In this document: in pieces, positions 26,984 through 62,115 of the stretch
Layout of the letters: every line of letters starts with the position of its first letter
How positions within the stretch are numbered: the stretch's first letter is position 1
Assembly: GCF_024223415.1 (NCBI RefSeq)
Contig: NZ_CP100500.1
Source of the DNA: Escherichia coli
GTDB lineage: Bacteria > Pseudomonadota > Gammaproteobacteria > Enterobacterales > Enterobacteriaceae
Length of the DNA stretch: 64,000 bases
Strand: one strand, 5' to 3'
Program-made: the position numbers and the translations under genes
The notes under the pieces: generated by a model
Database searches by the model: none
What the model was told of the DNA's origin: nothing
The model's input: only the letters and a program-made list of their open reading frames with translations

Positions 26984-26992
26984 ACAGGTTCC

Positions 26993-28354: not shown

Positions 28355-28364
28355 GCTCAGTTCC

Positions 28365-28622: not shown

Positions 28623-28627
28623 GTATA

Positions 28628-36591: not shown

Positions 36592-36667
36592 CCAAAGTAA
36601 ACCAGGCACATATCCTCCATGCTCCCGGGACAACAGAGCGCAGTTCGGGCACTACAGCCTTACTGGT

Positions 36668-37839: not shown

Positions 37840-39483
37840 ATGGATATCTGGTCACAGGACTATGATCCCGTCGGAAATATCTGGCTGTCCAGCCTGACAG
37901 CATCGCTTCCCATTCTGTTTTTTTTCTTTGCCCTGATTAAGCTGAAGCTTAAAGGCCATGTTGCTGCCACATGGACTGTCATTATCGCGCTCATCGTGGC
38001 CCTTCTTTTTTATAAGATGCCTCTCACAGCCGCACTCGCTTCCGTGCTCTATGGTTTCTTCTATGGCCTGTGGCCCATTGCCTGGATAATTATTGCCGCA
38101 GTTTTTGTTTATAAAATTTCTGTAAAAACCGGACAGTTCGATATCATTCGCGCTTCAGTGCTGTCCGTTACGCCTGATCAGCGTATTCAGATGCTGATTG
38201 TGGGGTTTGCCTTTGGTGCCTTTCTCGAAGGGGCCGCCGGTTTTGGAGCACCTGTGGCCATAACAGCAGCACTGCTCGTGGTGCTTGGGTTCAGACCACT
38301 TTACGCGGCCGGGTTGTGTCTGATCGTCAATACAGCTCCCGTGGCCTTTGGTGCGATGGGGATCCCCATTCTCGTCGCAGGCCAGGTTACCGGGCTGGAC
38401 AGCTTTGAAATCGGTCAGATGGTTGGTCGTCAGTTACCCTTCCTGACCATTATTGTGTTGTTCTGGATCATGGCAATTATGGATGGCCTGCGTGGCATTA
38501 AGGAAACCTGGCCCGCCGTTCTGGTTGCCGGAGGTTCCTTCGCCATAGCCCAGTTTCTCAGTTCCAACTTTCTGGGCCCGGAGCTCCCGGACATCATATC
38601 ATCACTGGTGTCGCTGGTTTGTCTGACGCTTTTCCTGAAACGCTGGCAGCCTGTACATATTTTTCGCTTTGACAACACCCCGTACCAGAATACGGACTCA
38701 TCACCACTGAGCCGTTCACAGGTGATACGGGCATGGTCGCCATTTCTGTTTCTGACTGCCACGGTGACACTCTGGAGTCTTCCTCCCTTTAAAACACTGT
38801 TCGCACCGGGCGGTACACTGCATGACCTGGTGATTACTGTTCCTGTGCCGTATCTTGATAAACTCATTGCACGTATGCCTCCGGTAGTCAGCGAAGCCAC
38901 TGCTTATGCCGCGGTGTTTAAGTTTGACTGGTTCTCTGCCACCGGTACCGCCATCCTGTTTGCAGCATTGCTCTCTGTGATCTGGCTGAAGATGAAACCG
39001 TCAGATGCTGTCAGCACCTTTGGCAGTACACTGAAAGAACTTGCCCTGCCCGTCTATTCCATCGGCATGGTGCTGGCTTTCGCCTTTATCTCTAATTATT
39101 CGGGGCTTTCATCCACACTTGCCCTGGCTCTGGCACAGACAGGCAGCGCCTTTACGTTCTTCTCACCGTTTCTGGGCTGGCTGGGCGTATTTCTGACGGG
39201 ATCAGATACCTCATCCAATGCATTATTTGCATCACTCCAGGCAACGGCAGCTCATCAGATCGGGGTCTCCGATATTCTGATGGTTGCCGCCAACACCACA
39301 GGGGGAGTAACCGGCAAAATGATTTCTCCACAGTCCATTGCCATCGCCTGCGCAGCAACCGGACTTGTTGGCAAAGAATCAGAACTCTTTCGTTTTACTG
39401 TTAAACACAGCCTGATCTTCACCTGTATTGTGGGAGTCATCACCTCTCTCCAGGCATGGGTATTCACCTGGATGATCCCATGA
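37840..39483 (+). CDS. L-lactate permease (LldP/GlcA family paralogue)
   Basis: Start [39 protein letters not shown]...; LldP-like over full length; track ORF begins 66 nt upstream. Confidence 0.9.
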
Positions 39484-39658
39484 AATATTTGTTGTGCCGG
39501 ATCTTTTCCGGCATGATGATGTGTGTTACAGCCTCTGGCTTATAACACTCTGCAGTAGTGCTGGCTGACGTGACTGCCGGATATTCTGGTTTTCTTAAGT
39601 CACGGATATACTGACGACAGGGTTTCACATTCAATATTCAACTGACAGGTATGTTTAT

Positions 39659-40951
39659 ATGGCACACCGCTACCTGACACGACAGGATCACAGGACCTTA
39701 TCTCTGGCTGCGCTCGGAGGCGCACTTGAATTCTATGACTTCATCATTTTTGTTTTTTTCGCCGCCGTCATTGCTGAGCTCTTTTTCCCGCCGGATATAC
39801 CGGAATGGCTCCGTCAGCTCCAGGCATTTGGTATATTTGCTGCCGGGTACCTGGCACGACCTCTCGGCGGAATAATTCTGGCCCATTTTGGCGATATACT
39901 TGGGCGAAAGAAAATGTTCACCCTGAGTATTTTGCTTATGGCAGTACCGACACTTGTTATCGGTATTTTGCCAACCTACAGCTCTGTGGGTACCCTGGCT
40001 CCTGTGCTGCTTCTTCTGATGCGTCTGCTTCAGGGCGCAGCGATTGGCGGTGAAGTGCCCGGTGCCTGGGTTTTTGTTGCTGAGCATGTACCGGAGCGCC
40101 GAACCGGTATTGCATGCGGAACACTGACAGCAGGTTTAACCGCCGGGATCCTGCTTGGTTCAGTGGTTGCCACACTTGTCAATTCAGTATTGTCTCAGGA
40201 TATTGTTTACGATTACGGCTGGCGATTCCCCTTCCTTCTTGGTGGTGTTTTTGGCCTGGCAGCAATGTACCTGCGCCGCTGGCTGGAGGAAACTCCGGTA
40301 TTTCTGGAAATGAAAGCCAGAAAAAAACTGGCTCAGGAATTACCGGTAAAAGCTGTCGTTTTAAGACATAAAAAAGCTGTTGTGATTTCCATGCTGTTGA
40401 CATGGCTGATATCCGCAGGGATTATTGTGGTGATACTGATGGCACCGGTCTGGTTACAGAAACAGTATGACTTTTCGCCGACAGTCACCTTACAGGCTAA
40501 CAGCATTGCAACTATTATGCTGAGTCTGGGATGCCTGCTGGCCGGTATGGCCATTGATTCTTTTGGTGCCGGAAAAACCTTTATATCAGGCAGTATTCTG
40601 CTTGGATGTTCAGGATGGCTGTTCTATCACACTGTCGGTGAGTATCCTGAAATGTTGTTCTGGCTGTATGGGCTAGCGGGATTCAGTGTGGGCATTGTCG
40701 GGGCCGTCCCTTATGTTCTCGTGCGTATTTTCCCCGCAGAGGTCAGGTTTACCGGCATTTCATTCTCTTACAATGTCGCTTATGCAGTGGTGGGGGGACT
40801 GACTCCTGTTGTGGTCACGATGTTAACGGAAATCTCCCCGATGGCTCCAGCATGGTATGTTATGCTGTTATCACTTGTGGGATCAGGACTGGGAATATGG
40901 TTCTGCAGGGATCCCCGTCTTTTTATCTGTCACGCAGACAAAGACAAATAA
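39659..40951 (+). CDS. MFS transporter (metabolite:H+ symporter family)
   Basis: 430 aa, 12 predicted helices, MFS motif GDILGRKK. Confidence 0.8.
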   Translation: MAHRYLTRQDHRTLSLAALGGALEFYDFIIFVFFAAVIAELFFPPDIPEWLRQLQAFGIFAAGYLARPLGGIILAHFGDILGRKKMFTLSILLMAVPTLVIGILPTYSSVGTLAPVLLLLMRLLQGAAIGGEVPGAWVFVAEHVPERRTGIACGTLTAGLTAGILLGSVVATLVNSVLSQDIVYDYGWRFPFLLGGVFGLAAMYLRRWLEETPVFLEMKARKKLAQELPVKAVVLRHKKAVVISMLLTWLISAGIIVVILMAPVWLQKQYDFSPTVTLQANSIATIMLSLGCLLAGMAIDSFGAGKTFISGSILLGCSGWLFYHTVGEYPEMLFWLYGLAGFSVGIVGAVPYVLVRIFPAEVRFTGISFSYNVAYAVVGGLTPVVVTMLTEISPMAPAWYVMLLSLVGSGLGIWFCRDPRLFICHADKDK

Positions 40952-41733: not shown

Positions 41734-43269
41734 TTGATGGCTAAAAAGAAAATCTCCCGGAGTTCTATGGAAACCTGTTTAAAAATTCTCCAACTTAAGT
41801 TCGAGCAGCATCAGACAAACCGGACTATCGCACTTACACTGAACATCAGTCCCTCGACTGTTTCCGATGTATTGTCCCGCTTTAAGAACACGTCAATATC
41901 GTGGCCTTTGCCTGAATCGATGACAACTCAACGTCTTGAGGTGCTTATCTTTCCTGGCAAGCAAGCCCCGGAAATGACGCCGGCACTGCCTGACTGGCTC
42001 TACATTGATACCGAACTACGTCGTGTGGGAGTCACTCGTCAGCTCTTATGGATGGAATACAAACATCAGGCTGGTGAATATGCTCTGGGATACTCACAGT
42101 TCTGTCGTCGTTATCTGCACTGGAAAAAAAGCGTGCGTTACTCCATGCGGCAGGAACATCGTGCTGGTGAAAAACTCTTTATCGACTTCTGTGGTCCTAC
42201 AGTCCCTGTTGTTAATCCGGAAACCGGAGAAGAACGCAGAGTGGCCATCTTTGTAGCCGTGATGGGAGCATCTAACTATACCTATGTTGAAGCGTGCGAA
42301 GGTCAGGATCTGATGTCGTGGCTAAACGCCAACAGCCGATGTCTGACCTTCCTTGGTGGTGTACCAAAACTGCTGATCCCGGATAACCTTAAAAGTGCTG
42401 TCAAAAAAGTCGATCGCTACGAACCGGTCATCAATGAGAGTTACCAAGCATTCGCAGAGCACTACAATACAGTGATACTCCCAGCAAGACCAAGAAAACC
42501 AAAGGATAAAGCGAAAGCCGAAACGGCTGTACTTATCGTCGAACGATGGCTGCTTGCCCGCATTCGCAACGAGACCTTCTTTACACTCAGGAGCCTGAAC
42601 AGTCGTCTACGCGAGTTGTTGGTAGAGCTGAATAACCGTCCCATGAAAGGATACGGCAACCAGACGCGTGCAGAGCGTTTTGCCCTGCTGGATGCCCCTG
42701 CATTATCAGCCCTGCCAGTATCAGAGTATGAGTTCGCTGAATACAAAACGGTGAAAGTTGCACCTGATTACCATGTTGAATACGCCCACCACTGGTACTC
42801 AGTACCTCATGAACTGATCGGACAACGGTTATCCCTGAAAGCCACTCAGACAGTGATCCAACTCTGGCATCAGGGGCAATGCGTGGCACAACATCCGCGC
42901 AGCCTCCATGAGTACAAGCACACGACCAACCCTCTACACATGCCTGCAGCACATCAGGCACACAGCAGATGGACACCGGAAAGTCTTCAGGAAGCAGCCA
43001 GAAAGATAGATCCTTATACAGCAATGACAGTGGATAGCATGCTGAACAGTAAACGTCATCCTGAACAGGCTTACCGGACAGTCCTGGGGCTGCTGAGCCT
43101 GAAAAAACACTATGGTCGTGAGCGTCTGGAAAAAGCCTGTCATGTTGCCCGGGAGTGCAGAACGTCGGAAAGAAGGTTCATCGAAAACCTTCTGCGTAAT
43201 AACAGGGAAAACCTTTCCCTCCGGAAAAAGAGAGGCAGACGGAGGGAAACGTATCAAAAATCCAGTTAA
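41734..43269 (+). CDS. istA: IS21-family transposase IstA (orphan; no istB downstream)
   Basis: 511 aa with N-terminal helix-turn-helix and DDE integrase core; sequence typical of IstA. Confidence 0.85.
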   Translation: MMAKKKISRSSMETCLKILQLKFEQHQTNRTIALTLNISPSTVSDVLSRFKNTSISWPLPESMTTQRLEVLIFPGKQAPEMTPALPDWLYIDTELRRVGVTRQLLWMEYKHQAGEYALGYSQFCRRYLHWKKSVRYSMRQEHRAGEKLFIDFCGPTVPVVNPETGEERRVAIFVAVMGASNYTYVEACEGQDLMSWLNANSRCLTFLGGVPKLLIPDNLKSAVKKVDRYEPVINESYQAFAEHYNTVILPARPRKPKDKAKAETAVLIVERWLLARIRNETFFTLRSLNSRLRELLVELNNRPMKGYGNQTRAERFALLDAPALSALPVSEYEFAEYKTVKVAPDYHVEYAHHWYSVPHELIGQRLSLKATQTVIQLWHQGQCVAQHPRSLHEYKHTTNPLHMPAAHQAHSRWTPESLQEAARKIDPYTAMTVDSMLNSKRHPEQAYRTVLGLLSLKKHYGRERLEKACHVARECRTSERRFIENLLRNNRENLSLRKKRGRRRETYQKSS

Positions 43270-45125: not shown

Positions 45126-45548
45126 TTACAGCAACGAATTGTCCGTCCCGGTATCTTCCATCAGGGGCTCCCGGCGTTCCCTGCTGTACAGCCCGCTTCC
45201 ACACCCCGGGCAGACCTTTTCTCCTTCATAGCTTTCATCACACATCACACAAAACCACCTTCTTACCTTCACCGCATAATCAGGCACCAGCATGCCCTGC
45301 AGATACACACGACGGGATTCTTTCTCTGCCGGGTCAAGCCAGGTACATCGCAGGAGAACTTTCTCAGAGACCGTCATCTGGTCATGTTCAAACCACGGTG
45401 GTTGTCCGTCCGTGCCCCGCTTAAGCGTTAACGGGCAACCACAGGACACACAGCACAAAACGTCCTGGCGGTTGTGCTCCGCAGCTTCTTTCGCGGTGAC
45501 AAAATGGCCCTTGCTGTCATTCGCCATATAGCAGTTCAGAATTCGCAT
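45126..45548 (-). CDS. zinc-ribbon protein, paralogue B
   Basis: CCVSCGCPLTLKRGTDGQPPWFEH and C-terminal CVMCDESYEGEKVCPGCG; start placed at MRILNCY. Confidence 0.5.
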   Translation of the reverse strand: MRILNCYMANDSKGHFVTAKEAAEHNRQDVLCCVSCGCPLTLKRGTDGQPPWFEHDQMTVSEKVLLRCTWLDPAEKESRRVYLQGMLVPDYAVKVRRWFCVMCDESYEGEKVCPGCGSGLYSRERREPLMEDTGTDNSLL

Positions 45549-45562
45549 ATCCCCCCCTGAGC

Positions 45563-45949
45563 TTAAGCTGTCCGGGAAATACTGAAGCGCCCGGTCCGGC
45601 AGTGTGTGCAGTACTGCTCCCCATAATAATCGTGGTGACATTGTCTGCAGTGCCGGCTGGCTTTACGCACCACGGGTAAGGCATCCGGTACAAACTGCCG
45701 TAAGCGTTTAATCAGTTGCACCTCCCTGCGCTCAGGCTGTACGTAAGGACACTGCTGACCGTGCTCCGTCAGCCCTTCGTCAGTGTGTTCAAACCAGGGG
45801 CGTTCAGTGTTGTATTGCGGGTGGTATCTGAGCGCACTGCCGCAAAGGTGGCAGGTGTAGCGGTCGTAAGGTGCAGTCTGTGCGGTACGGGCACCGGTCA
45901 GACGTCCGTTGCCATCAAACGCGAGAAAAGATTTTGCGTACATCGTCAT
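45563..45949 (-). CDS. zinc-ribbon protein, paralogue A
   Basis: CHLCGSALRYHPQYNTERPWFEH and C-terminal CRQCHHDYYGEQYCTHC. Confidence 0.5.
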   Translation of the reverse strand: MTMYAKSFLAFDGNGRLTGARTAQTAPYDRYTCHLCGSALRYHPQYNTERPWFEHTDEGLTEHGQQCPYVQPERREVQLIKRLRQFVPDALPVVRKASRHCRQCHHDYYGEQYCTHCRTGRFSISRTA

Positions 45950-46154
45950 ACTCCGGGGCCGCCAGACGACACGCAGGCGTCAGCCGTCCCTTTACGGGCA
46001 GCGTGGACAGAGTGTGAATGGCGGTACAGTTAAGGGTGGAAAATGGGTGGGCTGTTGTTACAGCACTGTGGGTGTCACATCATGGTGTACCAACGTAAAA
46101 AATAATCAGCAGGATGTCGCCGGACATCAGCCCGTCCTGCTGGTTTTGCCGGGC

Positions 46155-46724
46155 TCAGCCCCGACTGCAGCCGAAATTACGTTCACCGGTGCCACAGGCT
46201 TTGGTATGCTCCTTCGCCAGATAGTCAGCCCGTTCCAGTAGCTGCTGAAAGCCGGCGTCATCATCACGCGTCAGCCACAGTGCGGGATGTTCCGGAAAGG
46301 TCGCCAGCGTGGCATGGTATCCGGCATCCACACCCAGGGCACTGCACCACGCCTGTTTAATCATCCCGGCCAGTGACCCCGGAACGCGGTAATCGCCGGC
46401 ACGGCACCAGGTATCCCGGTTGACCAGCAACAGCAGGTGATAATGTTTTTTACCTTTACGCTCCCCGAACTCCCGGGCCCAGGCGTAATGCAGGGTTGTG
46501 GGATGTACGCGTTTACCTTCACGGCGCCTGCGTTTCTGGTAAGCGTAAATTCGGGCTTTCAGGGCATTGACGAAGCGGGATATCACCGCAGCATCGGTCT
46601 CTGCGGGGTGCTCCGGCAGACGCAGATCCACCTGGAGCGCTGTCAGGCGGGGATGCACCGCCAGTGCCTGCTGCACCGTCTCACGGATACGCTTCTGCCA
46701 GAAGCTGTTGTACTTGTGTATCAT
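46155..46724 (-). CDS. YagK/YfjJ-family (inovirus Gp2-like, putative HUH-type) protein
   Basis: Motifs HPRLTALQVDLRLPEH and KKHYHLLLLVNRD. Confidence 0.65.
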   Translation of the reverse strand: MIHKYNSFWQKRIRETVQQALAVHPRLTALQVDLRLPEHPAETDAAVISRFVNALKARIYAYQKRRRREGKRVHPTTLHYAWAREFGERKGKKHYHLLLLVNRDTWCRAGDYRVPGSLAGMIKQAWCSALGVDAGYHATLATFPEHPALWLTRDDDAGFQQLLERADYLAKEHTKACGTGERNFGCSRG

Positions 46725-47167
46725 GGTTGAATCTCCTCCGTGACTCACAGACGTTACTTAAGGAAGAAGATGAGCAACAGGCTACACGTACGATAAAAGA
46801 CATTTGGGTCATGAATACACGATCTGGATGGACGACATAAAGGTGATGATCTGCTCAAACCAACCAGCGTTTATGATCGATGCGACAGACAGAAGGAATG
46901 AACTACTACAATAAATAAAATCTGTCGCTGTGTGGCAAGGAAGATTTTCTTCAGGAGTGCTGGCTTATTGGGATTTTTAACACAATTTAGAGTGAGTTCA
47001 ATCAGCCACAAATCTGGATTCCTATGTCCGGATTTTTACCACAATCCCCTTATTGATTTTTATTAATCATTCACAATCTGTGATCTAGCTCGATTGCGAT
47101 TTGTATTTGACTTAATATAATCACCATGATTGTATTAAATCAAATTATAACAACAGGCGTAAAAACC

Positions 47168-48121
47168 ATGAACATTAAAAAATCAATAGAACGAGTACCC
47201 GGCGGTATGATGGTTGTACCACTGGTGATTGGCGCCATTATCAATACCTTTTCACCACAAGTGCTGGAGATCGGCGGGTTCACCACCGCGTTGTTCAAAA
47301 ACGGCGCTGCTCCTCTGATTGGTGCCTTCCTGCTCTGTATGGGAGCAGGGATCAGCGTGAAAGCCGCACCTCGGGCGTTGTTTCAGGGGGGGGCAATAAC
47401 CCTGACCAAACTGCTTGTCGCCATTGCGATTGGCCTAGGTGTTGAGCATCTGTTCGGTCAGGAAGGTATCTTCGGATTGAGCGGCGTGGCAATCATTGCG
47501 GCAATGAGTAACTCAAACGGCGGACTTTACGCGGCGCTAGTGGGAGAGTTTGGCAACGAACGCGATGTCGGCGCTATTTCAATTCTATCTCTGAATGATG
47601 GACCGTTCTTTACAATGATCGCGCTGGGAGCTGCTGGTATGGCGAACATACCAATCATAGCGCTGGTCGCAGTGCTGATTCCGCTGGTGATAGGGATGCT
47701 CCTCGGTAACCTTGATCCCAACATGCGTGACTTCCTGACCAAAGGTGGACCACTATTGATCCCGTTCTTCGCGTTTGCGCTGGGTGCGGGGATCAACCTT
47801 GAAATGCTTCTGCAGGGTGGGCTGGCTGGGATTCTGCTTGGCGTACTGACCACCTTTATCGGCGGTTTCTTTAACATTCGCGCCGACCGTCTGGCTGGGG
47901 GAACCGGTATTGCCGGCGCGGCGGCTTCCAGCACAGCCGGAAATGCGGTAGCGACGCCGCTGGCGATTGCTCAGGCAGACCCTTCGCTGGCTGAAGTGGT
48001 TACCTCTGCCGCACCGCTGATTGCCGCATCGGTGATCACAACCGCAATTCTGACGCCAGTCCTAACCTCTCGGGTCGCCAAAAATCGGGCGCGTCAGATC
48101 TCTGAGGAGAAAAAAGTATGA
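47168..48121 (+). CDS. 2-keto-3-deoxygluconate permease (KdgT family)
   Basis: MNIKKSIERVPGGMMVVPLVIGAIINTF...; polytopic membrane protein. Confidence 0.8.
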   Translation: MNIKKSIERVPGGMMVVPLVIGAIINTFSPQVLEIGGFTTALFKNGAAPLIGAFLLCMGAGISVKAAPRALFQGGAITLTKLLVAIAIGLGVEHLFGQEGIFGLSGVAIIAAMSNSNGGLYAALVGEFGNERDVGAISILSLNDGPFFTMIALGAAGMANIPIIALVAVLIPLVIGMLLGNLDPNMRDFLTKGGPLLIPFFAFALGAGINLEMLLQGGLAGILLGVLTTFIGGFFNIRADRLAGGTGIAGAAASSTAGNAVATPLAIAQADPSLAEVVTSAAPLIAASVITTAILTPVLTSRVAKNRARQISEEKKV

Positions 48122-49389
48122 AGATGATCGTTATCGCCGACGACTTTACGGGTTCTAACGATACTGGCGTGCAGTTGGCGAAGAAAGGAGCTCGCACGGA
48201 AGTTTTGCTAACGCCGGAGCAAAAGCCTTCGCGTCGCACGGATGTACTGGTGCTCAACACTGAAAGTCGTGCGGTGCCGGCCGCACAGGCAGCGAAAGCG
48301 GTAACGCATGCTCTGGCTCCCTGGTGCAAAGGAGAGATGCTCCCGCTGGTATACAAGAAAATCGACTCCACATTTCGCGGCAACGTCGGCGCGGAAGTGA
48401 CGGCAGCGATGCGAGCCGCTAAACGGACTCTGGCAGTGATCGCTGCGGCGATCCCAGCTGCAGGACGCACAACCCGTAACGGATTATGCCTGGTCAACGG
48501 TACGCCTCTACTGGAAACCGAGTTTGCCAGCGATCCGAAAACGCCGGTTTTCTCCTCGCGCATTGCGGAACTGATCGCGCTACAAAGCGATATCCCGGTA
48601 CATGACGTGTCGCTTGATGACGTGCGACGCGGACAGCTCAGCGCCCTTCTTAAAGCTTTTGCAGCCCAGGGGGAATGCATGGTGGTAGTCGATGCGGTGG
48701 AAGATCACGACCTGTCTCTGATTACCCAGGCTATTTGTGAACAGGCTACATTTCCTCTACTGGTCGGTGCGGCAGGACTGGCGAATGCGCTACCGGTCAG
48801 AATGTTCATGCAGGAGAAGAAGGCTCTGCCAGTGCTAGTAGTTGCAGGATCGATGAGCGAAGCCACCCGGCGGCAGGTTGAAAAAGCGCTCACCCAGGCA
48901 CACGCCAACGTGGTGGACATTGATGTCTCACGACTGATTTCCTCGAAGGCCGAACAGGAAATAGCCTCTGTGGTGGAACAGGCCAGCGTGTTGCTCAGTC
49001 ACCAGAAACACACGATTCTTCGCACCAGCCGTAGTGCGGATGACCGACTGATGATCGATGCTCTGTGTACTGAAGCAGGCGTAGGCCGCCAACAGCTTGG
49101 CGAGATGCTCAGCCAATGTCTAGGGATCATTACACTGCGCATTATCGAACAGGCGCGTATTGGCGGCCTGTTCCTGACCGGAGGAGATATTGCCACTGCT
49201 GTTGCCAGTGCGCTTGGTGCTGAAGGCTATCGCATCCAGAACGAGGTCGCCCCATGCATTCCCTGCGGGATGTTTGTGAACAGCGAAATCGACGATCTTC
49301 CGGTGATCACGAAAGCTGGCGGATTCGGTTCAGACAGCACCCTTTGTGATGCACTTTATTTTATTGAGGAGATGTACAGTGGTAACTAA
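48118..49389 (+). CDS. four-carbon acid sugar kinase family protein (YgbK/OtnK-like)
   Basis: MKMIVIADDFTGSNDTGVQLAKKGARTEVLL N-terminus. Confidence 0.8.
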   Translation: MKMIVIADDFTGSNDTGVQLAKKGARTEVLLTPEQKPSRRTDVLVLNTESRAVPAAQAAKAVTHALAPWCKGEMLPLVYKKIDSTFRGNVGAEVTAAMRAAKRTLAVIAAAIPAAGRTTRNGLCLVNGTPLLETEFASDPKTPVFSSRIAELIALQSDIPVHDVSLDDVRRGQLSALLKAFAAQGECMVVVDAVEDHDLSLITQAICEQATFPLLVGAAGLANALPVRMFMQEKKALPVLVVAGSMSEATRRQVEKALTQAHANVVDIDVSRLISSKAEQEIASVVEQASVLLSHQKHTILRTSRSADDRLMIDALCTEAGVGRQQLGEMLSQCLGIITLRIIEQARIGGLFLTGGDIATAVASALGAEGYRIQNEVAPCIPCGMFVNSEIDDLPVITKAGGFGSDSTLCDALYFIEEMYSGN

Positions 49390-50362
49390 AACAATAGCGA
49401 TTACGATGGGCGATCCGGCAGGTATCGGTCCAGAAATAATTGTCAAGGCACTTTGTGAAAATGAACTTAGCGGCGCACCGCTGGTAGTGGTGGGATGCCT
49501 ACAGACCCTACAACGTTTGCAAACCAAAGGACTGGCAGAAGGAGTGACTTTTCGCGCAATTGACAATGTCACGCAGGCGCGATTTTCACAGGGCGTGATT
49601 CACGTAATCGATGAGCCGCTGGCACAGCCCCAAGCGCTGGAGCCAGGTAAAGTGCAGGCCGAGGCGGGAGATCTGGCCTACCGTTGCGTAAAACGTGCGA
49701 CGGAGTTGGCACTGAAAGGTGATGTACACGCCATCGCCACTGCGCCGCTGAATAAAGAAGCACTACATCAGGCGGGACATTATTATCCGGGACATACCGA
49801 ACTGCTGGCGACGTTGACCGGAAGCCGTGACTATGCGATGGTGCTTTACACCGACAAGCTGAAGGTGATTCACGTTTCGACCCATATTGCGTTACGCAAG
49901 TTTCTCGACACTCTCAACAGGCAACGCGTGGAGACTGTTATAGGCATCGCGGATCACTTCCTTAAGCGTATTGGCTTAGCCCAACCGCGCATCGCCGTAG
50001 CCGGGATCAATCCCCATGCAGGCGAAAACGGTCTGTTTGGCGATGAAGAAATTCGCATTGTATCGCCAGCCATTGAAAACATGAGGGCGAAAGGAACAGA
50101 CGTTTTCGGACCATGTCCACCGGATACCGTGTTTTTGCAGGCATACGAGGGTCATTATGACATGGTGGTGGCGATGTACCACGATCAGGGACATATTCCG
50201 CTCAAACTGCTTGGATTCTATGATGGCGTGAATATCACCGCCGGTCTGCCGTTTATTCGTACCTCTGCTGATCACGGGACTGCGTTTGATATTGCCTGGA
50301 CGGGCAAAGCAAAATCTGAGAGCATGGTCATATCGATTAAACTGGCAATGCAACTGGCATAA
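49379..50362 (+). CDS. PdxA-family NAD-dependent dehydrogenase (4-hydroxythreonine-4-phosphate dehydrogenase-like)
   Basis: KTIAITMGDPAGIGPEI...HTELLA...DHGTAFDIAWTGKA; GTG start with GAGGAG Shine-Dalgarno assumed. Confidence 0.8.
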   Translation: MVTKTIAITMGDPAGIGPEIIVKALCENELSGAPLVVVGCLQTLQRLQTKGLAEGVTFRAIDNVTQARFSQGVIHVIDEPLAQPQALEPGKVQAEAGDLAYRCVKRATELALKGDVHAIATAPLNKEALHQAGHYYPGHTELLATLTGSRDYAMVLYTDKLKVIHVSTHIALRKFLDTLNRQRVETVIGIADHFLKRIGLAQPRIAVAGINPHAGENGLFGDEEIRIVSPAIENMRAKGTDVFGPCPPDTVFLQAYEGHYDMVVAMYHDQGHIPLKLLGFYDGVNITAGLPFIRTSADHGTAFDIAWTGKAKSESMVISIKLAMQLA

Positions 50363-50371
50363 TTTCCTGTT

Positions 50372-51142
50372 ATGAAAGGACAACACCGTCTGGATAAAAT
50401 AGTGGCGTATTTGAAAAATCATACGCTGGCGACCGTGGAACAACTTGTAGATGTGGTAGAAGCATCGCCCGCGACGATCCGACGTGATCTGATCAAACTG
50501 AATAAACAGGGTGTGATCAGCCGCAGCCACGGAGGTGTTGCCCTGCGGCGTTTTGAACCCGCGCAACCCACAACCAATGAAAAGCAATTACGATCGCCTG
50601 CGGAAAAGCGGGCGATCGCGCGTTTTGCAGCCTCAATAGTACAGGCCGGCGACGCAGTGGTTTTGGACGCCGGCACCACCATGCTGGAGTTGGCTAAATG
50701 CCTGACTCATTTGCCACTCAGGGTGATCACGGTCGATCTGCATATCGCCCTGTTTTTGTCCGAATTTCCCCAGATTGAAGTCACCATTGTGGGTGGTCGT
50801 ATTGATGAAAGCAGTCAGTCCTGTATCGGCGACTTTGGTCGCAAAATGTTACGTAGCGTCTACCCTGATATCGCATTCATGAGCTGTAACACCTGGAGTA
50901 TGGAAAAAGGTGTCACAACTCCGACGGAGGACAAAGCAGGACTCAAGCAGGAGATTATCGCTAACGCCCAACGTAAGGTTCTACTGGCCGACAGCAGCAA
51001 ATATGGCGCGCATTCGCTGTTCAACGTAACGCCGCTGAGCAGTTTTACCGATGTTGTGACCGATGTGCATCTGCCACGCCCTGTCCAGGCAGAGCTGGAA
51101 GCCCACTCCATTGCCCTTACGCTAGTCCAGCCTGGATTTTAA
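50372..51142 (+). CDS. DeoR-family transcriptional regulator
   Basis: N-terminal helix-turn-helix ([34 protein letters not shown]) plus sugar-phosphate-binding domain. Confidence 0.85.
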
Positions 51143-51429
51143 AGGGACCGTTCACAGTTATCAGGACGGACGGCATGTTGCGCCAACAGTCTTACCTGTG
51201 AACTGTATAGTGAACGTCTTTATGCTTATGGCAGTAAATCCACCAGTTGCAAACATCCCCCGCTGACCGGGGGAAAGTATTCATGTACCTGTTGTTGATT
51301 TACTGATGTCCATATCGGACATTCAGCATGATACGCGTTGTCATCCGGAACACGACTCTCTGTCGTATAAATATACCCCCGGATGAACGCTGTTTCGGAT
51401 GTGCGTACCTGGGGGCCTCAGGTGACAGC

Positions 51430-52449
51430 TCAGACGGTGGTCATATCAATAACGATTCTGCCGTTGATTTTTCCTGCGCGCATGCGGCCGAATACAGAGT
51501 TGATATTTTCCAGTGGCTCCGTGGTGACCTCTGCATGAACCTTGTGCTGACCGGTAAAGAAGAGAGCTTCCTGCAAATCCTTACGGGTCCCTACAATAGA
51601 ACCCCTCACAGTTATACCATCAAGCACCATATCGAATATCGACAAATCAAATTTCCCCGGCGGCAGACCGTTCAGTACCATCGTTCCGCCACGACGCATC
51701 ATACCTGTGGCCTGAGAAAATGCGGCTGGTGACACTGCCGTGACCAGTACACCATGTGCACCACCAGTTTCTGCATGAATGCGCTGTACCGGATTTTCAC
51801 GCACGGCGTTCACCACAACAGAGGCTCCAAGTCTGCAGGCCAGCTCCAGTTTACTGTCATCCACATCAACAGCCGCAACATTCATCCCCATCGCGGCGGC
51901 ATACTGAACGGCCAGATGTCCCAGTCCTCCGACACCGGAAATCACCACCCATTCCCCCGGGCGGGCTTCCGTCATTTTCAGTCCTTTGTAAACAGTCACG
52001 CCGGCGCAAAGCACGGGGGCTATATGGTGAAAATCAACATTATCCGGAAGAAGTCCGACATAATTCGCATCCGCAAGACAGTATTCCGCAAACGTGCCAT
52101 TCACCGAATAACCAGCATTTTGTTGGGAATGACACAGGGTTTCCCAGCCCCCCAGGCAATGCTCACAGTAGCCGCATGCAGAATACAGCCAGGGAACCCC
52201 TACCCGATCGCCTTCCCTGATATGTTTTACGCCGGCACCCACGGCCACCACGTGACCTACCCCTTCATGTCCCGGAATAAACGGCGGACGTGGTTTGACT
52301 GGCCAGTCACCATCTGCAGCATGAAGATCGGTATGGCATACCCCCGTGGCTGCTATTCTGACCAGAATTTTTCCGGGTTCAATGGCCGGCACGGTAACTT
52401 CATCAATAACCAGCGGTTTTCCAAATTCTGTGACAATAGCGGCTTTCAT
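51430..52449 (-). CDS. zinc-dependent alcohol dehydrogenase (AdhP-like)
   Basis: [21 protein letters not shown]...GHEGVGHV...; zinc and GxGxxG motifs. Confidence 0.88.
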
Positions 52450-52494
52450 GGTTTTGAGTTGCATTTTTGATTCCTCTGTTAGCGAAAGACAAAA

Positions 52495-54015
52495 TCAGAA
52501 CAGACCAGCCGGTGATGTGTCATAACTGACCAGAATATTTTTAACCTGCTGATAGTGGCTGAGAGCCAGCTTATGTGTTTCCCTGCCAATACCAGAATTT
52601 TTATACCCTCCGAATGCGGCATGTGCCGGGTAATAATGGTAACAGTTTGTCCATATACGCCCGGCCTGGATCCCTTTTCCCATTCTCCATGCCCGGTTTA
52701 TATCTGTCGTCCACACACCCGCGCCAAGTCCGTATTCCGTATCGTTGGCGATACTGAGCGCCTCTTCTTCTGTCCTGAACGTGGTTATGCCAATGACAGG
52801 TCCGAAGATTTCCTCCCTGAAACATCGCATCTGATTATGGCCTTTGATCAGGGTCGGCTGAATGTAGAAGCCATTCTGTAAATGTCCCTCGTGGATGACA
52901 GGTGCACCACCGGTGAGTATTTCTCCGCCCTCATCCCTTGCTATGCGGATCCAGGAAAGGATCCTGTCATACTGTTCCCGGGAAGCCTGTGCACCTATCA
53001 TTGTGTCTGTATCAAACGGATCTCCACGGCGGATATTTTCGATTTTATGCAGAACCCGCTCCACAAAAGCCTGAAAGATCGTTTCCTGAACCAGGATACG
53101 TGAGGGACAGGTACAGACCTCCCCCTGATTAAAGAAGCCAAGTACAGCACCTTCAACCGCCTTTTCAAGGTAGCTGTCATCTCCGTTCATCACATCGTCA
53201 AAGAAAATATTGGGGGATTTACCGCCCAGTTCGACTGTACTGGGGATAATATTTTCAGCTGCGCAGGAGAGAATATGCCGCCCGACGGGCGTGGAGCCTG
53301 TGAATGCAATTTTATCGATACGACGGCTGCGGGCCAGAGCTTCACCAGCTTCCTGCCCGAAACCATGAACAACGTTAAGCACACCCGGCGGTAAAAGATC
53401 ACCGATTAATTCCAGCAGTACGCAAATACCCAGAGGGGTCTGTTCTGCGGGCTTCAGTACCACACAGTTTCCTGCCGCAAGTGCCGGTGCCAGTTTCCAG
53501 GCCGCCATCAGCAAAGGAAAATTCCATGGAATAATCTGACCGACCACTCCCACAGGTTCATAGATGTGCCATGCCATCATATCCCTGCCCACCTCTGCTG
53601 CACTGCCTTCCTGCGCCCGGAGACAGCCCGCAAAATAACGGAAGTGGTCAACTGCCAGTGGAATATCGGCCGCGAGTGTTTCGCGTACCGGCTTGCCGTT
53701 ATCCCAGGTTTCTGTCAGTGCCAGGATTTCTGTGTTCGCTTCAATACGATCGGCAATGGCAAGCAGTATATTCGCCCGCTCCGTGACCGGTGTTGCCCCC
53801 CATCGGGCTCTGGCCTCATGTGCCGCAGTGAGCGCGCTTTCAATATCCATCTCACCCGAACGTGGGAATTCAGCAATATTTTCTCCGGTAACAGGAGTGG
53901 TGCTGGTGAACCATCGCCCGCCGACAGGATCAACAAACTGACCGTTGATAAAGTTACCGTAGCGTTTTTTGAATGACACTTTTGAGCCGGGTAATCCCGG
54001 ATGTATGTATTTCAT
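52495..54015 (-). CDS. NAD-dependent aldehyde dehydrogenase (AldB/AcoD-like)
   Basis: 506 aa with catalytic ELGGKSP and GQ...C motifs. Confidence 0.88.
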   Translation of the reverse strand: MKYIHPGLPGSKVSFKKRYGNFINGQFVDPVGGRWFTSTTPVTGENIAEFPRSGEMDIESALTAAHEARARWGATPVTERANILLAIADRIEANTEILALTETWDNGKPVRETLAADIPLAVDHFRYFAGCLRAQEGSAAEVGRDMMAWHIYEPVGVVGQIIPWNFPLLMAAWKLAPALAAGNCVVLKPAEQTPLGICVLLELIGDLLPPGVLNVVHGFGQEAGEALARSRRIDKIAFTGSTPVGRHILSCAAENIIPSTVELGGKSPNIFFDDVMNGDDSYLEKAVEGAVLGFFNQGEVCTCPSRILVQETIFQAFVERVLHKIENIRRGDPFDTDTMIGAQASREQYDRILSWIRIARDEGGEILTGGAPVIHEGHLQNGFYIQPTLIKGHNQMRCFREEIFGPVIGITTFRTEEEALSIANDTEYGLGAGVWTTDINRAWRMGKGIQAGRIWTNCYHYYPAHAAFGGYKNSGIGRETHKLALSHYQQVKNILVSYDTSPAGLF

Positions 54016-54081
54016 GACATTCTCCCTGAGCGAAATTCAGTGTACGTTCATGCAGGAACAAAACTGTTGCAGATAACCTTA

Positions 54082-54097
54082 AGCAACACCCATGCCA
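54082..54097 (-). promoter_or_regulatory. sigma-54 (-24/-12) promoter upstream of the aldB-adhP operon
   Basis: Minus strand reads TGGCATGGGTGTTGCT (GG and GC spaced as in TGGCAC-N5-TTGCA), about 65 nt upstream of the aldB start. Confidence 0.7.
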
Positions 54098-54256
54098 CCA
54101 AGTTGTTACACACAGTTAACAACAACAAAAACAGCCTGTTAGCCCAAAAAACAGACAACCGAAAAAGAATCACCACAGGAAAATGTGAAGCAAATAAAAC
54201 ATTTTCGATACACAAATGATACAATCATGCAACACAACTGTTGCAAGGATTGAATT

Positions 54257-56017
54257 ATGTTACGTAAGAGATCTGCAACTGAGTATCAGAAAGAAAAAGC
54301 CACGCTTCCGGTACTCCTGAGTGCATCATGGCAACGATGTACCGGCTATCATCTCGAAAGAGACAGTGCGCCCTCAGTATGTGTTGAGCATGACCAGTTA
54401 CGGGATCTCCGGTCGCACAACGGCTGGTCAGATATCCTTAAACAACAGTTCCCTGAATCAGGCTCTGATTTTTTCAGTAAATCACTGGTACTGGTTATTG
54501 CTGATGCATCAGGCGTGATCCTTGACACCTGCGGTAACAGGAAATTTCTGAATAAAGCCGAAGGTTTTTTCCTTTCCCCCGGTCATATCTGGACCGAACA
54601 ACACTACGGCACAAATGCCATAGGTACAGCGCTGGCTGTACAGCAGGCATGTGAAGTGAGGGGGAGTGAACACTGGCTCAACAGAAATTCAGGACTCTGT
54701 TGTTCGGCATACCCGCTATTTTCACCTGAAGGTTATCTTGCCGGTATCCTGGATTTATCGTCACCGGCAGATTTACCATTCCGTGATGCACCGGTGATTA
54801 TCAGGCGGTTTGTTCAGCAAACCGAATATCTCTGGACAACAAAACGACTCAATGCAGAGAGATATCTGTTGCATCTCCGCCGGGAAAACAACGCAGACAT
54901 CAGTGACAGTAGTGAATTTTTACTGGTCATTGAAGGTGATGTGATTGTTGGTGCCAACAGGCTCGCTGTGAATGAATTTGGCCTTCTTCCACCTTATGAT
55001 TCCGTCACTCTGGATACTCTCTTTACCGGGGGTAACAGACAGTCTGATTTTCTGGAATCGTGCAGCGGACAACGTTATCTGCAGCGACGCACCCGCCCCC
55101 ACAGAGCTGCCGTGAATCTGTCACCCCGCCTCCGTTTTCCATCGCGGCGTGAAGCGGACAACGAAAAAAAGGAAAAAGCACAGCAGTTAATCAACCACGG
55201 AATATCGGTCTGTATTACAGGAGAAACCGGAACGGGGAAAGAATATCTGGCGCGGGAGCTTCACCGTAACAGTTGCCGGAAAAACGGCAACTTTGTTGCA
55301 ATTAACTGTGCTGCCCTGCCGGAACACCTGACAGAATCAGAGCTTTTCGGATACGCTCCGGGAGCATTTACCGGCGCGAATTCCAGAGGTTATCCCGGGA
55401 AAATCAGGGAAGCCAGTGGCGGGATCCTGTATCTTGATGAAATCGGCGATATGCCGGCAACACTTCAGACACGGTTATTACGTGTACTGCAGGACAAAAA
55501 AGTGATTCCTCTGGGTTCAAACACGCCTGTGGACGTTGACTTCGTACTGATATCAGCCACGCACCGTGATCTGGATAAGATGTGTGCAGAAGGGACTTTT
55601 CGGGATGATCTGTTATACCGAATACGGGAATTTCACCTGCATCTTCAGCCACTTCGGGAAAGAAGCGACCTGGGTAAACTGATAGTTAAACTCTGGGAAG
55701 AATCTGAACAGGAGATGAAAAAAACCGTCATGCTGGGCAGTGAAATTATTGAAGATTTAAAACGACATTCATGGCCGGGGAATGTACGTCAGTTGCTGAA
55801 TGTGCTCAGAGTTCTGATGGCGCTGGCACGACCTGGAGGAAGAATCACTCCAGGTGATCTCAGCGTAGTGTCTGAAGATATTTGTCATATCCATAATACC
55901 GTAAAGATAGTGACCGAAAGAAAAATAGTGGATGAGGCCGGAGGAAACATCAGCAGAGCGGCAAAAATGCTGGGTATTTCCCGAAGCACATTATACAGAC
56001 GACTGAAAAGTCTGTAA
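54257..56017 (+). CDS. sigma-54-dependent transcriptional activator (AcoR-like)
   Basis: AAA+ Walker A GETGTGKE, GAFTGA motif (YAPGAFTGA), C-terminal helix-turn-helix. Confidence 0.88.
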   Translation: MLRKRSATEYQKEKATLPVLLSASWQRCTGYHLERDSAPSVCVEHDQLRDLRSHNGWSDILKQQFPESGSDFFSKSLVLVIADASGVILDTCGNRKFLNKAEGFFLSPGHIWTEQHYGTNAIGTALAVQQACEVRGSEHWLNRNSGLCCSAYPLFSPEGYLAGILDLSSPADLPFRDAPVIIRRFVQQTEYLWTTKRLNAERYLLHLRRENNADISDSSEFLLVIEGDVIVGANRLAVNEFGLLPPYDSVTLDTLFTGGNRQSDFLESCSGQRYLQRRTRPHRAAVNLSPRLRFPSRREADNEKKEKAQQLINHGISVCITGETGTGKEYLARELHRNSCRKNGNFVAINCAALPEHLTESELFGYAPGAFTGANSRGYPGKIREASGGILYLDEIGDMPATLQTRLLRVLQDKKVIPLGSNTPVDVDFVLISATHRDLDKMCAEGTFRDDLLYRIREFHLHLQPLRERSDLGKLIVKLWEESEQEMKKTVMLGSEIIEDLKRHSWPGNVRQLLNVLRVLMALARPGGRITPGDLSVVSEDICHIHNTVKIVTERKIVDEAGGNISRAAKMLGISRSTLYRRLKSL

Positions 56018-56337
56018 GAACAACGTGCTGCCGGATACGTTATTTGCGGGAAATTCCTGTTCTGTAAAATATATCTCAGGTTGTTAAAACCCTGTCATTC
56101 TTCCATGTGAACAGTATGAGAAACATCACACGGGTATATTCACGGCCGGCACAACCACAGACATAAATGATATCCTGCGCATCATTTCCTGATGCTCTGA
56201 TACTGAGTTAACCACTTATTTACATCTGACGATAAATTGTTTATTCATTCTTCAGGGTAAATAAAGCCATAAGGAGTGTGATATTCACGATACGCTGAAA
56301 ATCGGTGAACTGAAAAATGGCAGTTACAGGGGGAAAT

Positions 56338-57822
56338 ATGAGTGATTTAATTAATTTTATTAATGGCATAATATGGAGCCCGGCACTGGTCTGGCTTTGT
56401 CTTGGAACAGGCCTCTGGTTTTCTGTCAGGGGACGCTTCCTGCAGCTCCGGCATATTAAAGAAATGCGCCGTCTGATATTCCGGAGTAAACAGAATGATG
56501 CGGGCGTTTCCTCTTTTCAGGCACTCACGATGACACTGGCCGGACGGGTCGGAACCGGTAATATTGCCGGTGTTGCCACGGCTATCACCTTTGGTGGTCC
56601 CGGTGCATTATTCTGGATGTGGGTGGTGGCATTTCTCGGCGCAAGCTCAGCCTTTGTCGAATCCACACTGGGGCAAATTTATAAGGAAAAAATTAACGGA
56701 GAATACCGGGGCGGACCCGCTTTTTACATAGAAAAAGGGCTTGGGTTACGATGGTACGCATGGCTGTTTGCTGTGGTGACGGTGCTTTCCTGTGGGCTGT
56801 TATTACCCGGTGTCCAGGCGAATTCGATAGGAAGCAGCCTGAACCTTGCATTCGGGATTAGCCCCAATGTGACGGCAGCATTTATCGCCCTCCTTCTTGG
56901 ATTCATCATCTTTGGTGGTGTAAAACGGATTGCTGTATTTACCAGTACTGTCGTGCCTTTCATGGCTCTCGGCTATATCATTGTCGCGTGTGTCATTGTT
57001 GCACTTCATATTGAAAAACTTCCCGGCGTGCTCCTCCTTGTCTGGCGCTCTGCTTTTGGACTGGATGCAGGTTTTGGTGCCATTGTCGGGCTTGCCATTT
57101 CATGGGGGGTCAAACGTGGTGTCTATTCCAATGAAGCCGCTCAGGGAACCGGACCTCACGCCTCTTCCGCTGCGGCAGTGACACATCCGGTTAAACAGGG
57201 ACTGGTGCAGGCCTTTTCTGTATATATCGACACGCTTTTTGTCTGTTCAGCTACGGGATTTATGCTTCTTGTTACCGGTCTGTATAATGTTCAGGGCCCC
57301 GGTGATGTTGCCTTATATACCGGTATCGCCGGTGTGGCAGCCGGGCCCGGCTATGTGCAGACAGCCATGGAAAGTATGATGCCGGGGTTTGGTAATTATT
57401 TTGTCGCAATCGCACTGTTCTTTTTCGCATTCACCACGATTGTTGCTTACTATTATATCGCAGAAACTAACATTGCCTGGATTTGCCGTAAAACAGCACG
57501 CCCCTGGCTTATGATTGTACTGAAGATTATGCTGATGGTTTCTGCGGTATACGGTACGGTCAAAACCGCAGATATGGCATGGGGACTGGGTGATATAGGG
57601 GTTGGTATGATGGCATGGCTTAATATCATCGCTATATTGCTTATGGGAGGGACTGCGTTTAATTGCCTCAGGGACTACGAAAAACAGATGTCACAGAATG
57701 CTGACCCGGTATTTGATCCCGAACGCCTCAGTCTGCAAAATGCTGATTACTGGACAGAACACCGTGATGAAGTTAAAAAATTGAGTGAGCCCGGGCCCAC
57801 ATTCCGGACAACGTCGTCGTAA
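56338..57822 (+). CDS. alanine/glycine:cation symporter (AGCS family)
   Basis: MSDLINFINGIIWSPALVWLCLGTGLWFS...; polytopic. Confidence 0.85.
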   Translation: MSDLINFINGIIWSPALVWLCLGTGLWFSVRGRFLQLRHIKEMRRLIFRSKQNDAGVSSFQALTMTLAGRVGTGNIAGVATAITFGGPGALFWMWVVAFLGASSAFVESTLGQIYKEKINGEYRGGPAFYIEKGLGLRWYAWLFAVVTVLSCGLLLPGVQANSIGSSLNLAFGISPNVTAAFIALLLGFIIFGGVKRIAVFTSTVVPFMALGYIIVACVIVALHIEKLPGVLLLVWRSAFGLDAGFGAIVGLAISWGVKRGVYSNEAAQGTGPHASSAAAVTHPVKQGLVQAFSVYIDTLFVCSATGFMLLVTGLYNVQGPGDVALYTGIAGVAAGPGYVQTAMESMMPGFGNYFVAIALFFFAFTTIVAYYYIAETNIAWICRKTARPWLMIVLKIMLMVSAVYGTVKTADMAWGLGDIGVGMMAWLNIIAILLMGGTAFNCLRDYEKQMSQNADPVFDPERLSLQNADYWTEHRDEVKKLSEPGPTFRTTSS

Positions 57823-61955: not shown

Positions 61956-62115
61956 ACCCTGAATCCATATTTCTTATAACCTGCCCCGGGATACTGCGCT
62001 GCACACGACAGAAACTCGTGTCGTCCCCCGGCACTGACAGCTCCCCGTACCTTACGATACATTAACGTTATCCCCTCACGATCCCTTACGGCAATCTTGC
62101 TTTATTCTCCCCCTT

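Follow-up and report, generated by a model that had tools for sequence, protein, structure and literature searches.

The D-threonate pathway was reportedly solved in 2016 by Zhang and colleagues, in PNAS, with the Salmonella enzymes DtnK and PdxA2, and since it was solved then, the operon considered here carries little biochemical weight of its own. In Salmonella enterica the characterised pair STM0162 (dtnK) and STM0163 (pdxA2) is part of a four-gene operon, the outer members of which are presumably STM0161, a kdgT-like gene, and STM0164, encoding a DeoR regulator. DtnK has been identified as a DUF1537 enzyme (PMC10971088), the assignments EC 2.7.1.219 and 1.1.1.408 are given in PMC13185595, and STM0162, STM0163 and STM0164 shift together in a Salmonella microarray (PMC3139621). 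It has also been shown that a KdgT homologue of R. eutropha imports D-threonate, and that E. coli needs no more than a KdgT-type permease and the two activities to grow on D-threonate (PMC10079672).

The L-threonate route of the E. coli ygbJKLMN type (LtnD-OtnI-OtnK-OtnC, PMC12540250) likewise combines a DUF1537-superfamily kinase with a DeoR-family regulator, takes a four-carbon acid sugar and ends at dihydroxyacetone phosphate (DHAP), but it oxidises first and then isomerises, phosphorylates and decarboxylates with an aldolase-like enzyme. In contrast, the route encoded in the window (the whole stretch of E. coli DNA analysed here, 64,000 nucleotides) would begin with phosphorylation and use a PdxA-family oxidative decarboxylase, with neither isomerase nor aldolase. 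A paralogous trio of 'dtnK', pdxA2 and deoR lies at nagE-glnS in 1,136 of the 5,426 complete E. coli genomes, and is GR6 of strain BEN2908 (PMC12928451). It shares the order kinase-PdxA2-DeoR with the window and both of its enzymes pass the same NCBIfam models, but its kinase is only 41% identical to that of the window, and it has no KdgT permease, carrying instead an SLC13/DASS permease with sialidase-like, DHDPS-like and Fe-ADH genes. Because of the missing KdgT permease and the other gene context, the substrate of this trio is probably different, or a precursor.

Within the window four intact plus-strand genes fill 47168-51142:

47168-48121, plus strand: KdgT-family permease, the probable D-threonate importer (317 aa; Pfam KdgT, E=2e-122)
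48118-49389, plus strand: dtnK, predicted D-threonate kinase (DUF1537: SBD_N and NBD_C; 423 aa)
49379-50362, plus strand: pdxA2, predicted D-threonate 4-phosphate dehydrogenase (decarboxylating) of the PdxA family (327 aa; GTG start)
50372-51142, plus strand: DeoR/GlpR-family regulator, the last gene of the operon (256 aa; Pfam HTH_DeoR and DeoRC)

The four gene identities given in a preliminary description of this DNA are correct, with Pfam assignments far beyond chance and open reading frames at these coordinates, as is its placing of the block among pathways for four-carbon acid sugars. The genes, their order and their strand are those of the Salmonella operon, and the junctions, read directly from the sequence, are also the same, with a 4-nt overlap (ATGA) between permease and dtnK, an 11-nt overlap between dtnK and pdxA2 and a 9-nt gap between pdxA2 and deoR. 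The two overlaps fit the translational coupling that had been claimed for the junctions, but the third junction is only tightly packed. Identity to the Salmonella proteins is 92% for the permease, 78% for DtnK (over the full length and free of gaps), 84% for PdxA2 and 84% for DeoR. The permease ATG at 47168 (ATGAACAT) is invariant in an alignment across 12 genera; an in-frame ATG at 47126, the mechanical start of the open reading frame, was rejected, as it lies inside operator O3 (see below) and is not conserved. The GTG start of pdxA2 at 49379 agrees with the 327-aa database protein and has a Shine-Dalgarno sequence, GAGGAG (49366-49371), 8 nt upstream.

Judged from the sequence, the block is, with a probability of roughly 85%, a complete and self-regulated operon through which D-threonate serves as a carbon source. 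Uptake of D-threonate would be by the KdgT-family permease, DtnK would convert it with ATP to 4-phospho-D-threonate, and PdxA2 would oxidise and decarboxylate this with NAD+ to DHAP and CO2, thus leading into glycolysis. This reading draws on gene content, orthology, synteny, purifying selection and conserved motifs observed here, with the enzyme chemistry and the sufficiency of a permease and two enzymes taken from the literature. The operon itself is already known, and public databases already name these identical E. coli proteins correctly; what is unusual is its position only, which is in an E. coli genomic island and not at the usual chromosomal site.

The kinase matches Pfam SBD_N (1.8e-64) and NBD_C (6.5e-39), formerly DUF1537, and PDB 4xfm (E=2.5e-95). 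In NCBIfam profile searches it passes NF047819 (D-threonate kinase) with 653.9 bits against a cutoff of 450 and fails NF043035 (3-oxo-tetronate kinase, OtnK) with 170.6 bits against 350, and it is thus of the DtnK type and not "YgbK/OtnK-like" as had been proposed. The NF047819 cutoff is also passed by the paralogous E. coli kinase at just 41% identity, and because of this a pass on the model does not by itself settle the substrate. With so permissive a model the argument for DtnK rests on the 78% identity to, and full synteny with, the characterised protein, and caution is needed where the model is used, as it labels a protein from a different gene context D-threonate kinase as well. The loose cutoff gives some room to the idea that the chemistry is the same and the substrate another, with the kinase acting on D-erythronate (DenK-like) or a further short acid sugar and PdxA2 taking the corresponding 4-phosphate. 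KEGG puts dtnK and denK in one orthologue, and credits PdxA2 with activities on both 4-phospho-D-threonate and 4-phospho-D-erythronate (PMC13185595), yet switches of substrate are uncommon at the distance that separates this kinase from Salmonella DtnK, gap-free and in the same conserved operon, and another substrate appears very improbable. D-threonate is most likely the substrate, and it was omitted from the preliminary description, which had named L-threonate and D-erythronate for growth tests.

It is also conceivable that the block is an incomplete OtnK-type module for L-threonate or D-erythronate, the isomerase and aldolase-like decarboxylase of which are encoded elsewhere in the genome; the kinase does fall in the same superfamily as YgbK/OtnK (Pfam SBD_N and NBD_C), and E. 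coli has ygb genes for L-threonate at another place in its genome. LtnD of E. coli and the four-step route are cited in PMC12540250, but there the partner of OtnK is the class II aldolase-like OtnC and not a PdxA-family enzyme. Furthermore, the kinase fails the OtnK model and passes that of DtnK, the four genes recur in about 45 species as a self-contained set to which neither an isomerase nor an aldolase is joined, and growth needs the permease and two enzymes only (PMC10079672), which makes an incomplete module extremely unlikely. An isomerase and an aldolase had been described as expected and absent. Their absence stands, as neither the block nor the annotated open reading frames of the 64-kb window include a gene for either, and neither LtnD/DenD dehydrogenase, OtnI isomerase nor OtnC aldolase-like decarboxylase occurs there or attached to the cassette in other species; the expectation does not stand, since both enzymes belong to the OtnK route. 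Because permease, kinase and oxidative decarboxylase are all that the DtnK/PdxA2 route requires to reach DHAP, nothing would be missing, and with this false puzzle removed the block can be read without gaps as it stands.

The dehydrogenase was rightly described as a PdxA-family oxidative decarboxylase, with a Pfam PdxA match of E=1.2e-105 and NF002891 (PdxA2) as by far its best NCBIfam model, at 661.7 bits against a cutoff of 583. It also exceeds the cutoff of the general pdxA model TIGR00557 (382 bits against 290), yet this is far below its NF002891 score, and the PdxA of PLP biosynthesis was rejected as its identity on that comparison. Its top PDB matches are the PdxA2 structures 2hi1 (E=5e-185), which we take to be from Salmonella, and 6e85 (Klebsiella, E=4.6e-164).

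A score above the general pdxA cutoff would also suit a role in vitamin B6 supply, in which the kinase phosphorylates 4-hydroxy-L-threonine, a toxic antimetabolite, to 4-phosphohydroxy-L-threonine and PdxA2 carries out the PdxA reaction, salvaging a toxic compound for the PLP pathway and not supplying carbon metabolism. Against this, E. coli has its own pdxA, and the pair shares its operon with a permease dedicated to acid sugars and with a repressor that responds to the substrate, a catabolic layout. STM0162 phosphorylates 4-hydroxy-L-threonine according to Thiaville et al. 2016, as that work is related in PMC10971088, and a B6-dependent Salmonella strain was made by deleting pdxA and STM0163 together (PMC5951976), but PMC9997740 lists PdxA2 with the catabolism of organic acids, not with PLP synthesis. 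A B6 role is considered improbable and the activity on 4-hydroxy-L-threonine is best read as a side reaction, with D-threonate catabolism as the preferred function of the pair.

The permease scores 281 bits against TIGR00793, the KdgT equivalog, below the cutoff of 453.8; it was thus not accepted as the true 2-keto-3-deoxygluconate permease KdgT, and is a member of that family and probably the importer of D-threonate. The regulator reaches no NCBIfam equivalog cutoff, its best score being 169.7 bits for YgbI (cutoff 400), so that it is described as a DeoR/GlpR-family member only and not as the YgbI repressor.

Upstream of the permease gene lie the following elements:

47054-47069, unstranded: putative DeoR operator O1 (distal), TGATTTTTATTAATCA, with exact palindrome arms
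47078-47094, plus strand: motif CTGTGATC, invariant in the alignment of 12 genera, a possible CRP half-site (TGTGA-N6-TCGAT)
47094-47121, plus strand: sigma-70-type promoter, -35 TTGCGA, 16-nt spacer, -10 TATAAT (10 of 12 positions)
47108-47123, unstranded: putative operator O2, TGACTTAATATAATCA, with one arm mismatch, overlapping the -10 box
47127-47142, unstranded: putative operator O3, TGATTGTATTAAATCA, an exact match just downstream of the -10 box

No other site in the region resembles a promoter as closely as this one, the TATAAT of which is invariant in the 12 genera. The three palindromes of the form TGATT-N6-AATCA are probably the operators of the operon's own DeoR repressor, to judge by their sequence and placing. 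O1 and O3 are the sole exact matches within the 64 kb, and together with the one-mismatch copy O2, the mismatched arm of which is TGATT in most other genera, all lie within 89 bp of the promoter. In the 44 loci scanned, the interval from -130 to -20 relative to the kdgT start holds 83 matches, whereas about 714 kb of other sequence holds 10; the palindrome arms are conserved and the spacers vary. The position of O3 is conserved across these loci at 26-42 nt before the start codon, and that of O1 is kept in most Enterobacteriaceae loci. The promoter and palindromes are the same in the Salmonella operon. The palindromes would provide a defined and testable binding site for this DeoR regulator. 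In the DeoR family the inducer is usually a phosphate ester. Although operators, inducer and CRP input are all inferred, the DeoR-family protein most likely represses the single promoter by means of the three palindromes, one upstream of it, one over the -10 box and one just downstream, and D-threonate or its phosphate ester would release the repressor. The CRP half-site may add catabolite control; the CTGTGATC motif has its centre some 41.5 nt before the inferred transcription start, its alignment columns C289 and G291-C296 are invariant in the 12 genera, and its second half-site is poor. The terminator scan gave no plus-strand intrinsic terminator downstream of the regulator gene, and an Rfam scan of 46000-52000 gave no riboswitch and no other RNA.

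Whilst the Salmonella operon sits between yacL and speD, as does the same cassette in Klebsiella, Citrobacter and other Enterobacterales, the copy in the window belongs to a genomic island of E. coli next to serW, where a YagK/YfjJ gene and an adhP-aldh module flank it, and has only a decayed stub of yacL:

46799-46954, plus strand: decayed 3' fragment of yacL (UPF0231), with a frameshift and an in-frame stop
47012-47038, plus strand: weakened remnant of the yacL intrinsic terminator, TCTGGA...TCCGGA TTTTTAC

A tblastn search with YacL of K. michiganensis (Pfam UPF0231) returned two segments that lie in different reading frames, one of them interrupted by a stop, and the DNA of the fragment aligns to the 3' end of yacL from 11 other genera. 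The terminator remnant aligns with the GCCGGxC...GxCCGGC-T8 hairpin of other genera and was not called by the terminator scan. Because the window keeps this decayed fragment, and the home of the cassette elsewhere is yacL-speD, it appears that the cassette was captured horizontally. Similarity across genera is limited to 46805-51182, whilst flanking similarity to E. coli island DNA ends at 46736 and resumes at 51220; the core flank is 99.9-100% E. coli. The copy would have been taken from the yacL-speD locus of a Citrobacter-like enterobacterium, and the nearest sequences found are the copies of Citrobacter sedlakii and Pseudenterobacter timonensis, with that of C. sedlakii 89.2% identical in nucleotides and 91-94% in protein. 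As dS is 0.28-0.42 neither is the direct donor, which places the donor lineage outside the sampled genomes. When the surroundings of the cassette were searched for repeats, neither direct nor inverted ones were seen to flank it, nor were IS ends, and a plasmid search gave one 72%-identical Pantoea match only, thus no sign of plasmid carriage.

The account that is favoured, with some reserve, is that the serW-island copy is a recent capture from a Citrobacter-like donor that gives one E. coli lineage the import of, and growth on, D-threonate, laboratory E. coli reportedly being without uptake, and that the triple palindrome is an uncharacterised DeoR operator. A mosaic E. coli island would then have received a metabolic operon of the core chromosome in one piece of 4.4 kb, still trailing the stub of its former neighbour gene, and the operon may add D-threonate to the diet of the strain. 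A megablast search of the cassette against the 5,426 complete E. coli genomes returned only an 81-bp match, in the flank, and blastn in a more sensitive mode returned the distant paralogue only.

The same four-gene order is found in about 45 species-representative Enterobacterales genomes, and dN/dS is 0.03-0.11 for all four genes, a value of 0.96 for kdgT against L002 having been disregarded as an artefact of a 39-nt offset in fixed-offset extraction. It could be argued that E. coli carries the operon as silent cargo, with its sequence intact but without useful expression, and that it is decaying. The sequence before the kdgT start is AGGCGTAAAAACC here against a consensus of AGGCGGGAAGACC, and the ribosome-binding site of the window copy is therefore weaker; this, the one operator mismatch and the position of the cassette among IS elements and other island remnants would fit such decay. 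Of the eight other E. coli copies, two have kdgT broken by frameshifting indels, so that not every strain keeps the trait. However, silent cargo seems only a slim prospect, as the four open reading frames are intact, the -10 box and start codon are unchanged and the remaining six copies align gap-free with at most 2 substitutions in 4,484 bp. The exact DtnK is indexed in 533 collection blocks, and several hundred E. coli assemblies have it. The presence of the exact proteins on roughly 100-300 E. coli contigs each, as counted from cluster membership lists that mixed kinase and permease entries and were used for names and contig counts only, also speaks against silent cargo.

The cassette at 47168-51142 contains four intact genes on the + strand when the open reading frames of the window are read, as the preliminary description had it in both coordinates and gene calls. 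The Pfam matches of their products have E-values ranging from 2e-122 to 2.8e-16, thus they are not due to chance.

47168-48121, + strand, KdgT-family permease, 317 aa (Pfam)
[quoted passage not shown]
49379-50362, + strand, PdxA-family protein, 327 aa (Pfam)
50372-51142, + strand, DeoR-family regulator, 256 aa (Pfam)

In the sequence itself, permease and kinase overlap by an ATGA, kinase and PdxA share 11 nt, and 9 nt separate PdxA from the regulator. The 11-nt overlap of kinase and PdxA arises because pdxA2 starts at a GTG at 49379, which is preceded by GAGGAG and yields a protein of 327 aa, the same as in database entries.

The subfamilies were told apart with NCBIfam equivalog models and their bit-score cutoffs. 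The kinase scores 653.9 bits against NF047819, which models D-threonate kinase (cutoff 450), and 170.6 bits against the model of the 3-oxo-tetronate kinase OtnK, which is below the cutoff of 350, so the earlier naming of a YgbK/OtnK-like kinase has to give way to DtnK. An OtnK-type reading of the cassette is excluded by these scores and by the PdxA-family partner enzyme. The dehydrogenase reaches 661.7 bits against NF002891, D-threonate 4-phosphate dehydrogenase (cutoff 583), the permease falls short of the true KdgT model (281 bits, cutoff 453.8), and the DeoR-family regulator attained no NCBIfam equivalog cutoff. Among solved structures the top match of the dehydrogenase is 2hi1, '4-hydroxythreonine-4-phosphate dehydrogenase 2' (E=5e-185), which is of Salmonella origin, and it also matches Klebsiella 6e85, 'D-threonate 4-phosphate dehydrogenase' (E=4.6e-164); the best structural relative of the kinase is 4xfm (E=2.5e-95).

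The model cutoffs alone leave the substrate unsettled, because a distant kinase/PdxA2/DeoR trio at nagE-glnS, found in 1,136 of 5,426 complete E. coli genomes, passes the same DtnK and PdxA2 models. The kinase of this trio is 41% identical to the cassette DtnK, yet is still named D-threonate kinase by PGAP, and the trio comes with a SLC13/DASS permease and sialidase-like, DHDPS-like and Fe-ADH genes (for example at 1610-10589 of L078, a locus from E. coli strain 4621). The substrate of this cluster probably differs from that of the cassette. What supports the putative assignment of the cassette to D-threonate is instead its close similarity to, and complete synteny with, the characterised Salmonella operon. 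The Salmonella enterica locus has the same gene order, both overlaps and the gap, with identities of 91.8, 78.0, 84.4 and 84.4% for permease, kinase, PdxA2 and DeoR. The cassette is a known and already annotated system, and its original identification was essentially correct. The kinase could act on another tetronate, for example D-erythronate, but its 78% identity to the Salmonella protein makes this unlikely.

DtnK was discovered among the DUF1537 proteins, according to PMC10971088, and KEGG entries give dtnK as EC 2.7.1.219 and pdxA2 as EC 1.1.1.408 and 1.1.1.409 (PMC13185595). In this two-enzyme route DtnK turns D-threonate into 4-phospho-D-threonate, from which PdxA2 makes DHAP, and growth of E. 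coli on D-threonate is reported to have required co-expression of a KdgT-type permease with both enzymes (PMC10079672). The isomerase and aldolase that had been thought missing are no gap, as they belong to the different L-threonate route of a dehydrogenase, isomerase OtnI, OtnK and the aldolase-like decarboxylase OtnC (PMC12540250); the cassette is therefore complete as a D-threonate block. The kinase and PdxA2 might alternatively recycle 4-hydroxy-L-threonine into vitamin B6 synthesis, an activity documented for the Salmonella pair in PMC10971088, PMC9997740 and PMC5951976, although an operon laid out with a permease and a repressor suggests a mainly catabolic role, and this explanation is very unlikely.

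Regulation of the D-threonate operon may lie in the region upstream of the permease, where the best promoter-like site, TTGCGA-16 nt-TATAAT, has a -10 box that is unchanged across 12 genera and is surrounded by three 16-bp palindromes.

47094-47121, promoter-like site
47054-47069, TGATT-N6-AATCA palindrome, exact
47108-47123, TGATT-N6-AATCA palindrome, one mismatch, covering the -10 box
47127-47142, TGATT-N6-AATCA palindrome, exact

The two exact palindromes are the only ones in the whole 64-kb window. Across 44 related loci 83 matches lie at -130 to -20 of the permease start, compared with 10 elsewhere (~714 kb), with positions and arms conserved and spacers variable. The operon's own DeoR repressor would bind these three sites, which are likely the footprint expected for this so far unstudied regulator and thus putative operators. 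The sequence CTGTGATC at 47078-47085, invariant in the 12-genus comparison, could be a candidate CRP half-site, its second half being poor. In a Salmonella microarray STM0162, STM0163 and STM0164 shift together by 2.1-2.5-fold (PMC3139621), which is consistent with a single transcript in Salmonella.

Over its first 5.6 kb (cydD, cydC, aat, infA, tRNA-Ser GGA) the window matches E. coli chromosomes at 99.9-100% identity, which marks the host as E. coli; the remainder is island DNA adjoining serW. The island starts directly after tRNA-Ser(GGA), where 5493-15279 carries, on the minus strand, genes for DUF4942, CbtA toxin, RadC, DUF932 and an Ag43-like autotransporter; the lack of an integrase beside the tRNA in this layout suggests a rearranged or inverted island.

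The cassette occurs in the same gene order in ~45 species-representative Enterobacterales genomes, lying between acnB-yacL and speD-speE in Klebsiella michiganensis and Salmonella, and the nucleotide similarity of the window to these genomes is confined to ~46805-51182. The stretch 46799-46954 is a remnant of the 3' part of yacL, interrupted by a frameshift and a stop codon, and at 47012-47038 the yacL terminator follows in weakened form; both travelled with the cassette from the usual yacL-speD site. Left of the cassette, the matches to genes of E. coli islands (a YagK/inovirus Gp2-like gene and two genes with zinc ribbons) stop at 46736, and on the right an adhP-aldh-sigma54 regulator module begins at 51220, 99.3% identical to E. 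coli NCTC9699. From the similarity limits, yacL stub and both flank edges, it follows that a unit of ~4.4 kb was captured from a yacL-speD locus. A repeat search found no flanking repeats or IS ends around it. The closest sampled relative, Citrobacter sedlakii, is only 89% identical in nucleotides (dS 0.28-0.42), thus the real donor lies outside the sample. The capture in an E. coli island with its yacL stub, together with the conserved, putative triple operator, is of modest interest. The adjoining module at 51220-56481 (adhP, aldehyde dehydrogenase and a sigma-54 activator with a MimR_N domain) has different island neighbours in NCTC9699 and is a separate mobile module.

At megablast sensitivity the cassette was found in 0 of 5,426 complete RefSeq E. 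coli genomes; the exact proteins are each on roughly 100-300 E. coli contigs in a large protein collection, under the names D-threonate kinase and D-threonate 4-phosphate dehydrogenase. Eight sampled E. coli assemblies have the same island neighbours and 99.89-100% identity over 4,484 bp. In two of the eight the permease gene is broken, by a 1-bp indel that splits it into ORFs of 92 and 211 aa (L084, 9050-10004) or by two indels such that no permease ORF is called (L086), which indicates that function is lost now and then. That the cassette is silent, decaying cargo in E. coli is nevertheless highly improbable, with genes, promoter and start codon all intact in the window. For every cassette gene dN/dS is 0.03-0.11 against Citrobacter, Klebsiella and Salmonella.

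Elsewhere in the island, 24626-40951 holds a run of three further metabolic modules: biotin carboxylase, carboxyltransferase subdomain proteins, LamB/YcsF and a LysR regulator; a GntR-aminotransferase fusion regulator, class III aminotransferase and amino-acid permease; and an FMN-dependent dehydrogenase, lactate permease and MFS transporter. An IS21-type istA transposase gene at 41734-43269 has no obvious istB partner downstream, and some assemblies with the same island (L079, L082, L083) carry an IS3-family element at its 3' end. Two tandem overlapping genes at 45126-45949, each encoding DUF7828 and a zinc ribbon, adjoin genes for a YagK/YfjJ protein and a YhgA/Rpn-family nuclease, a set that recurs with ~87% identity across thousands of E. 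coli genomes. The region 59604-62679, with ~88% nucleotide identity in many E. coli genomes, encodes a TOTE conflict-system protein of 783 aa, in which an archaeo-eukaryotic primase domain is fused to a helicase; the next gene is the second of YagK/inovirus Gp2-like type.
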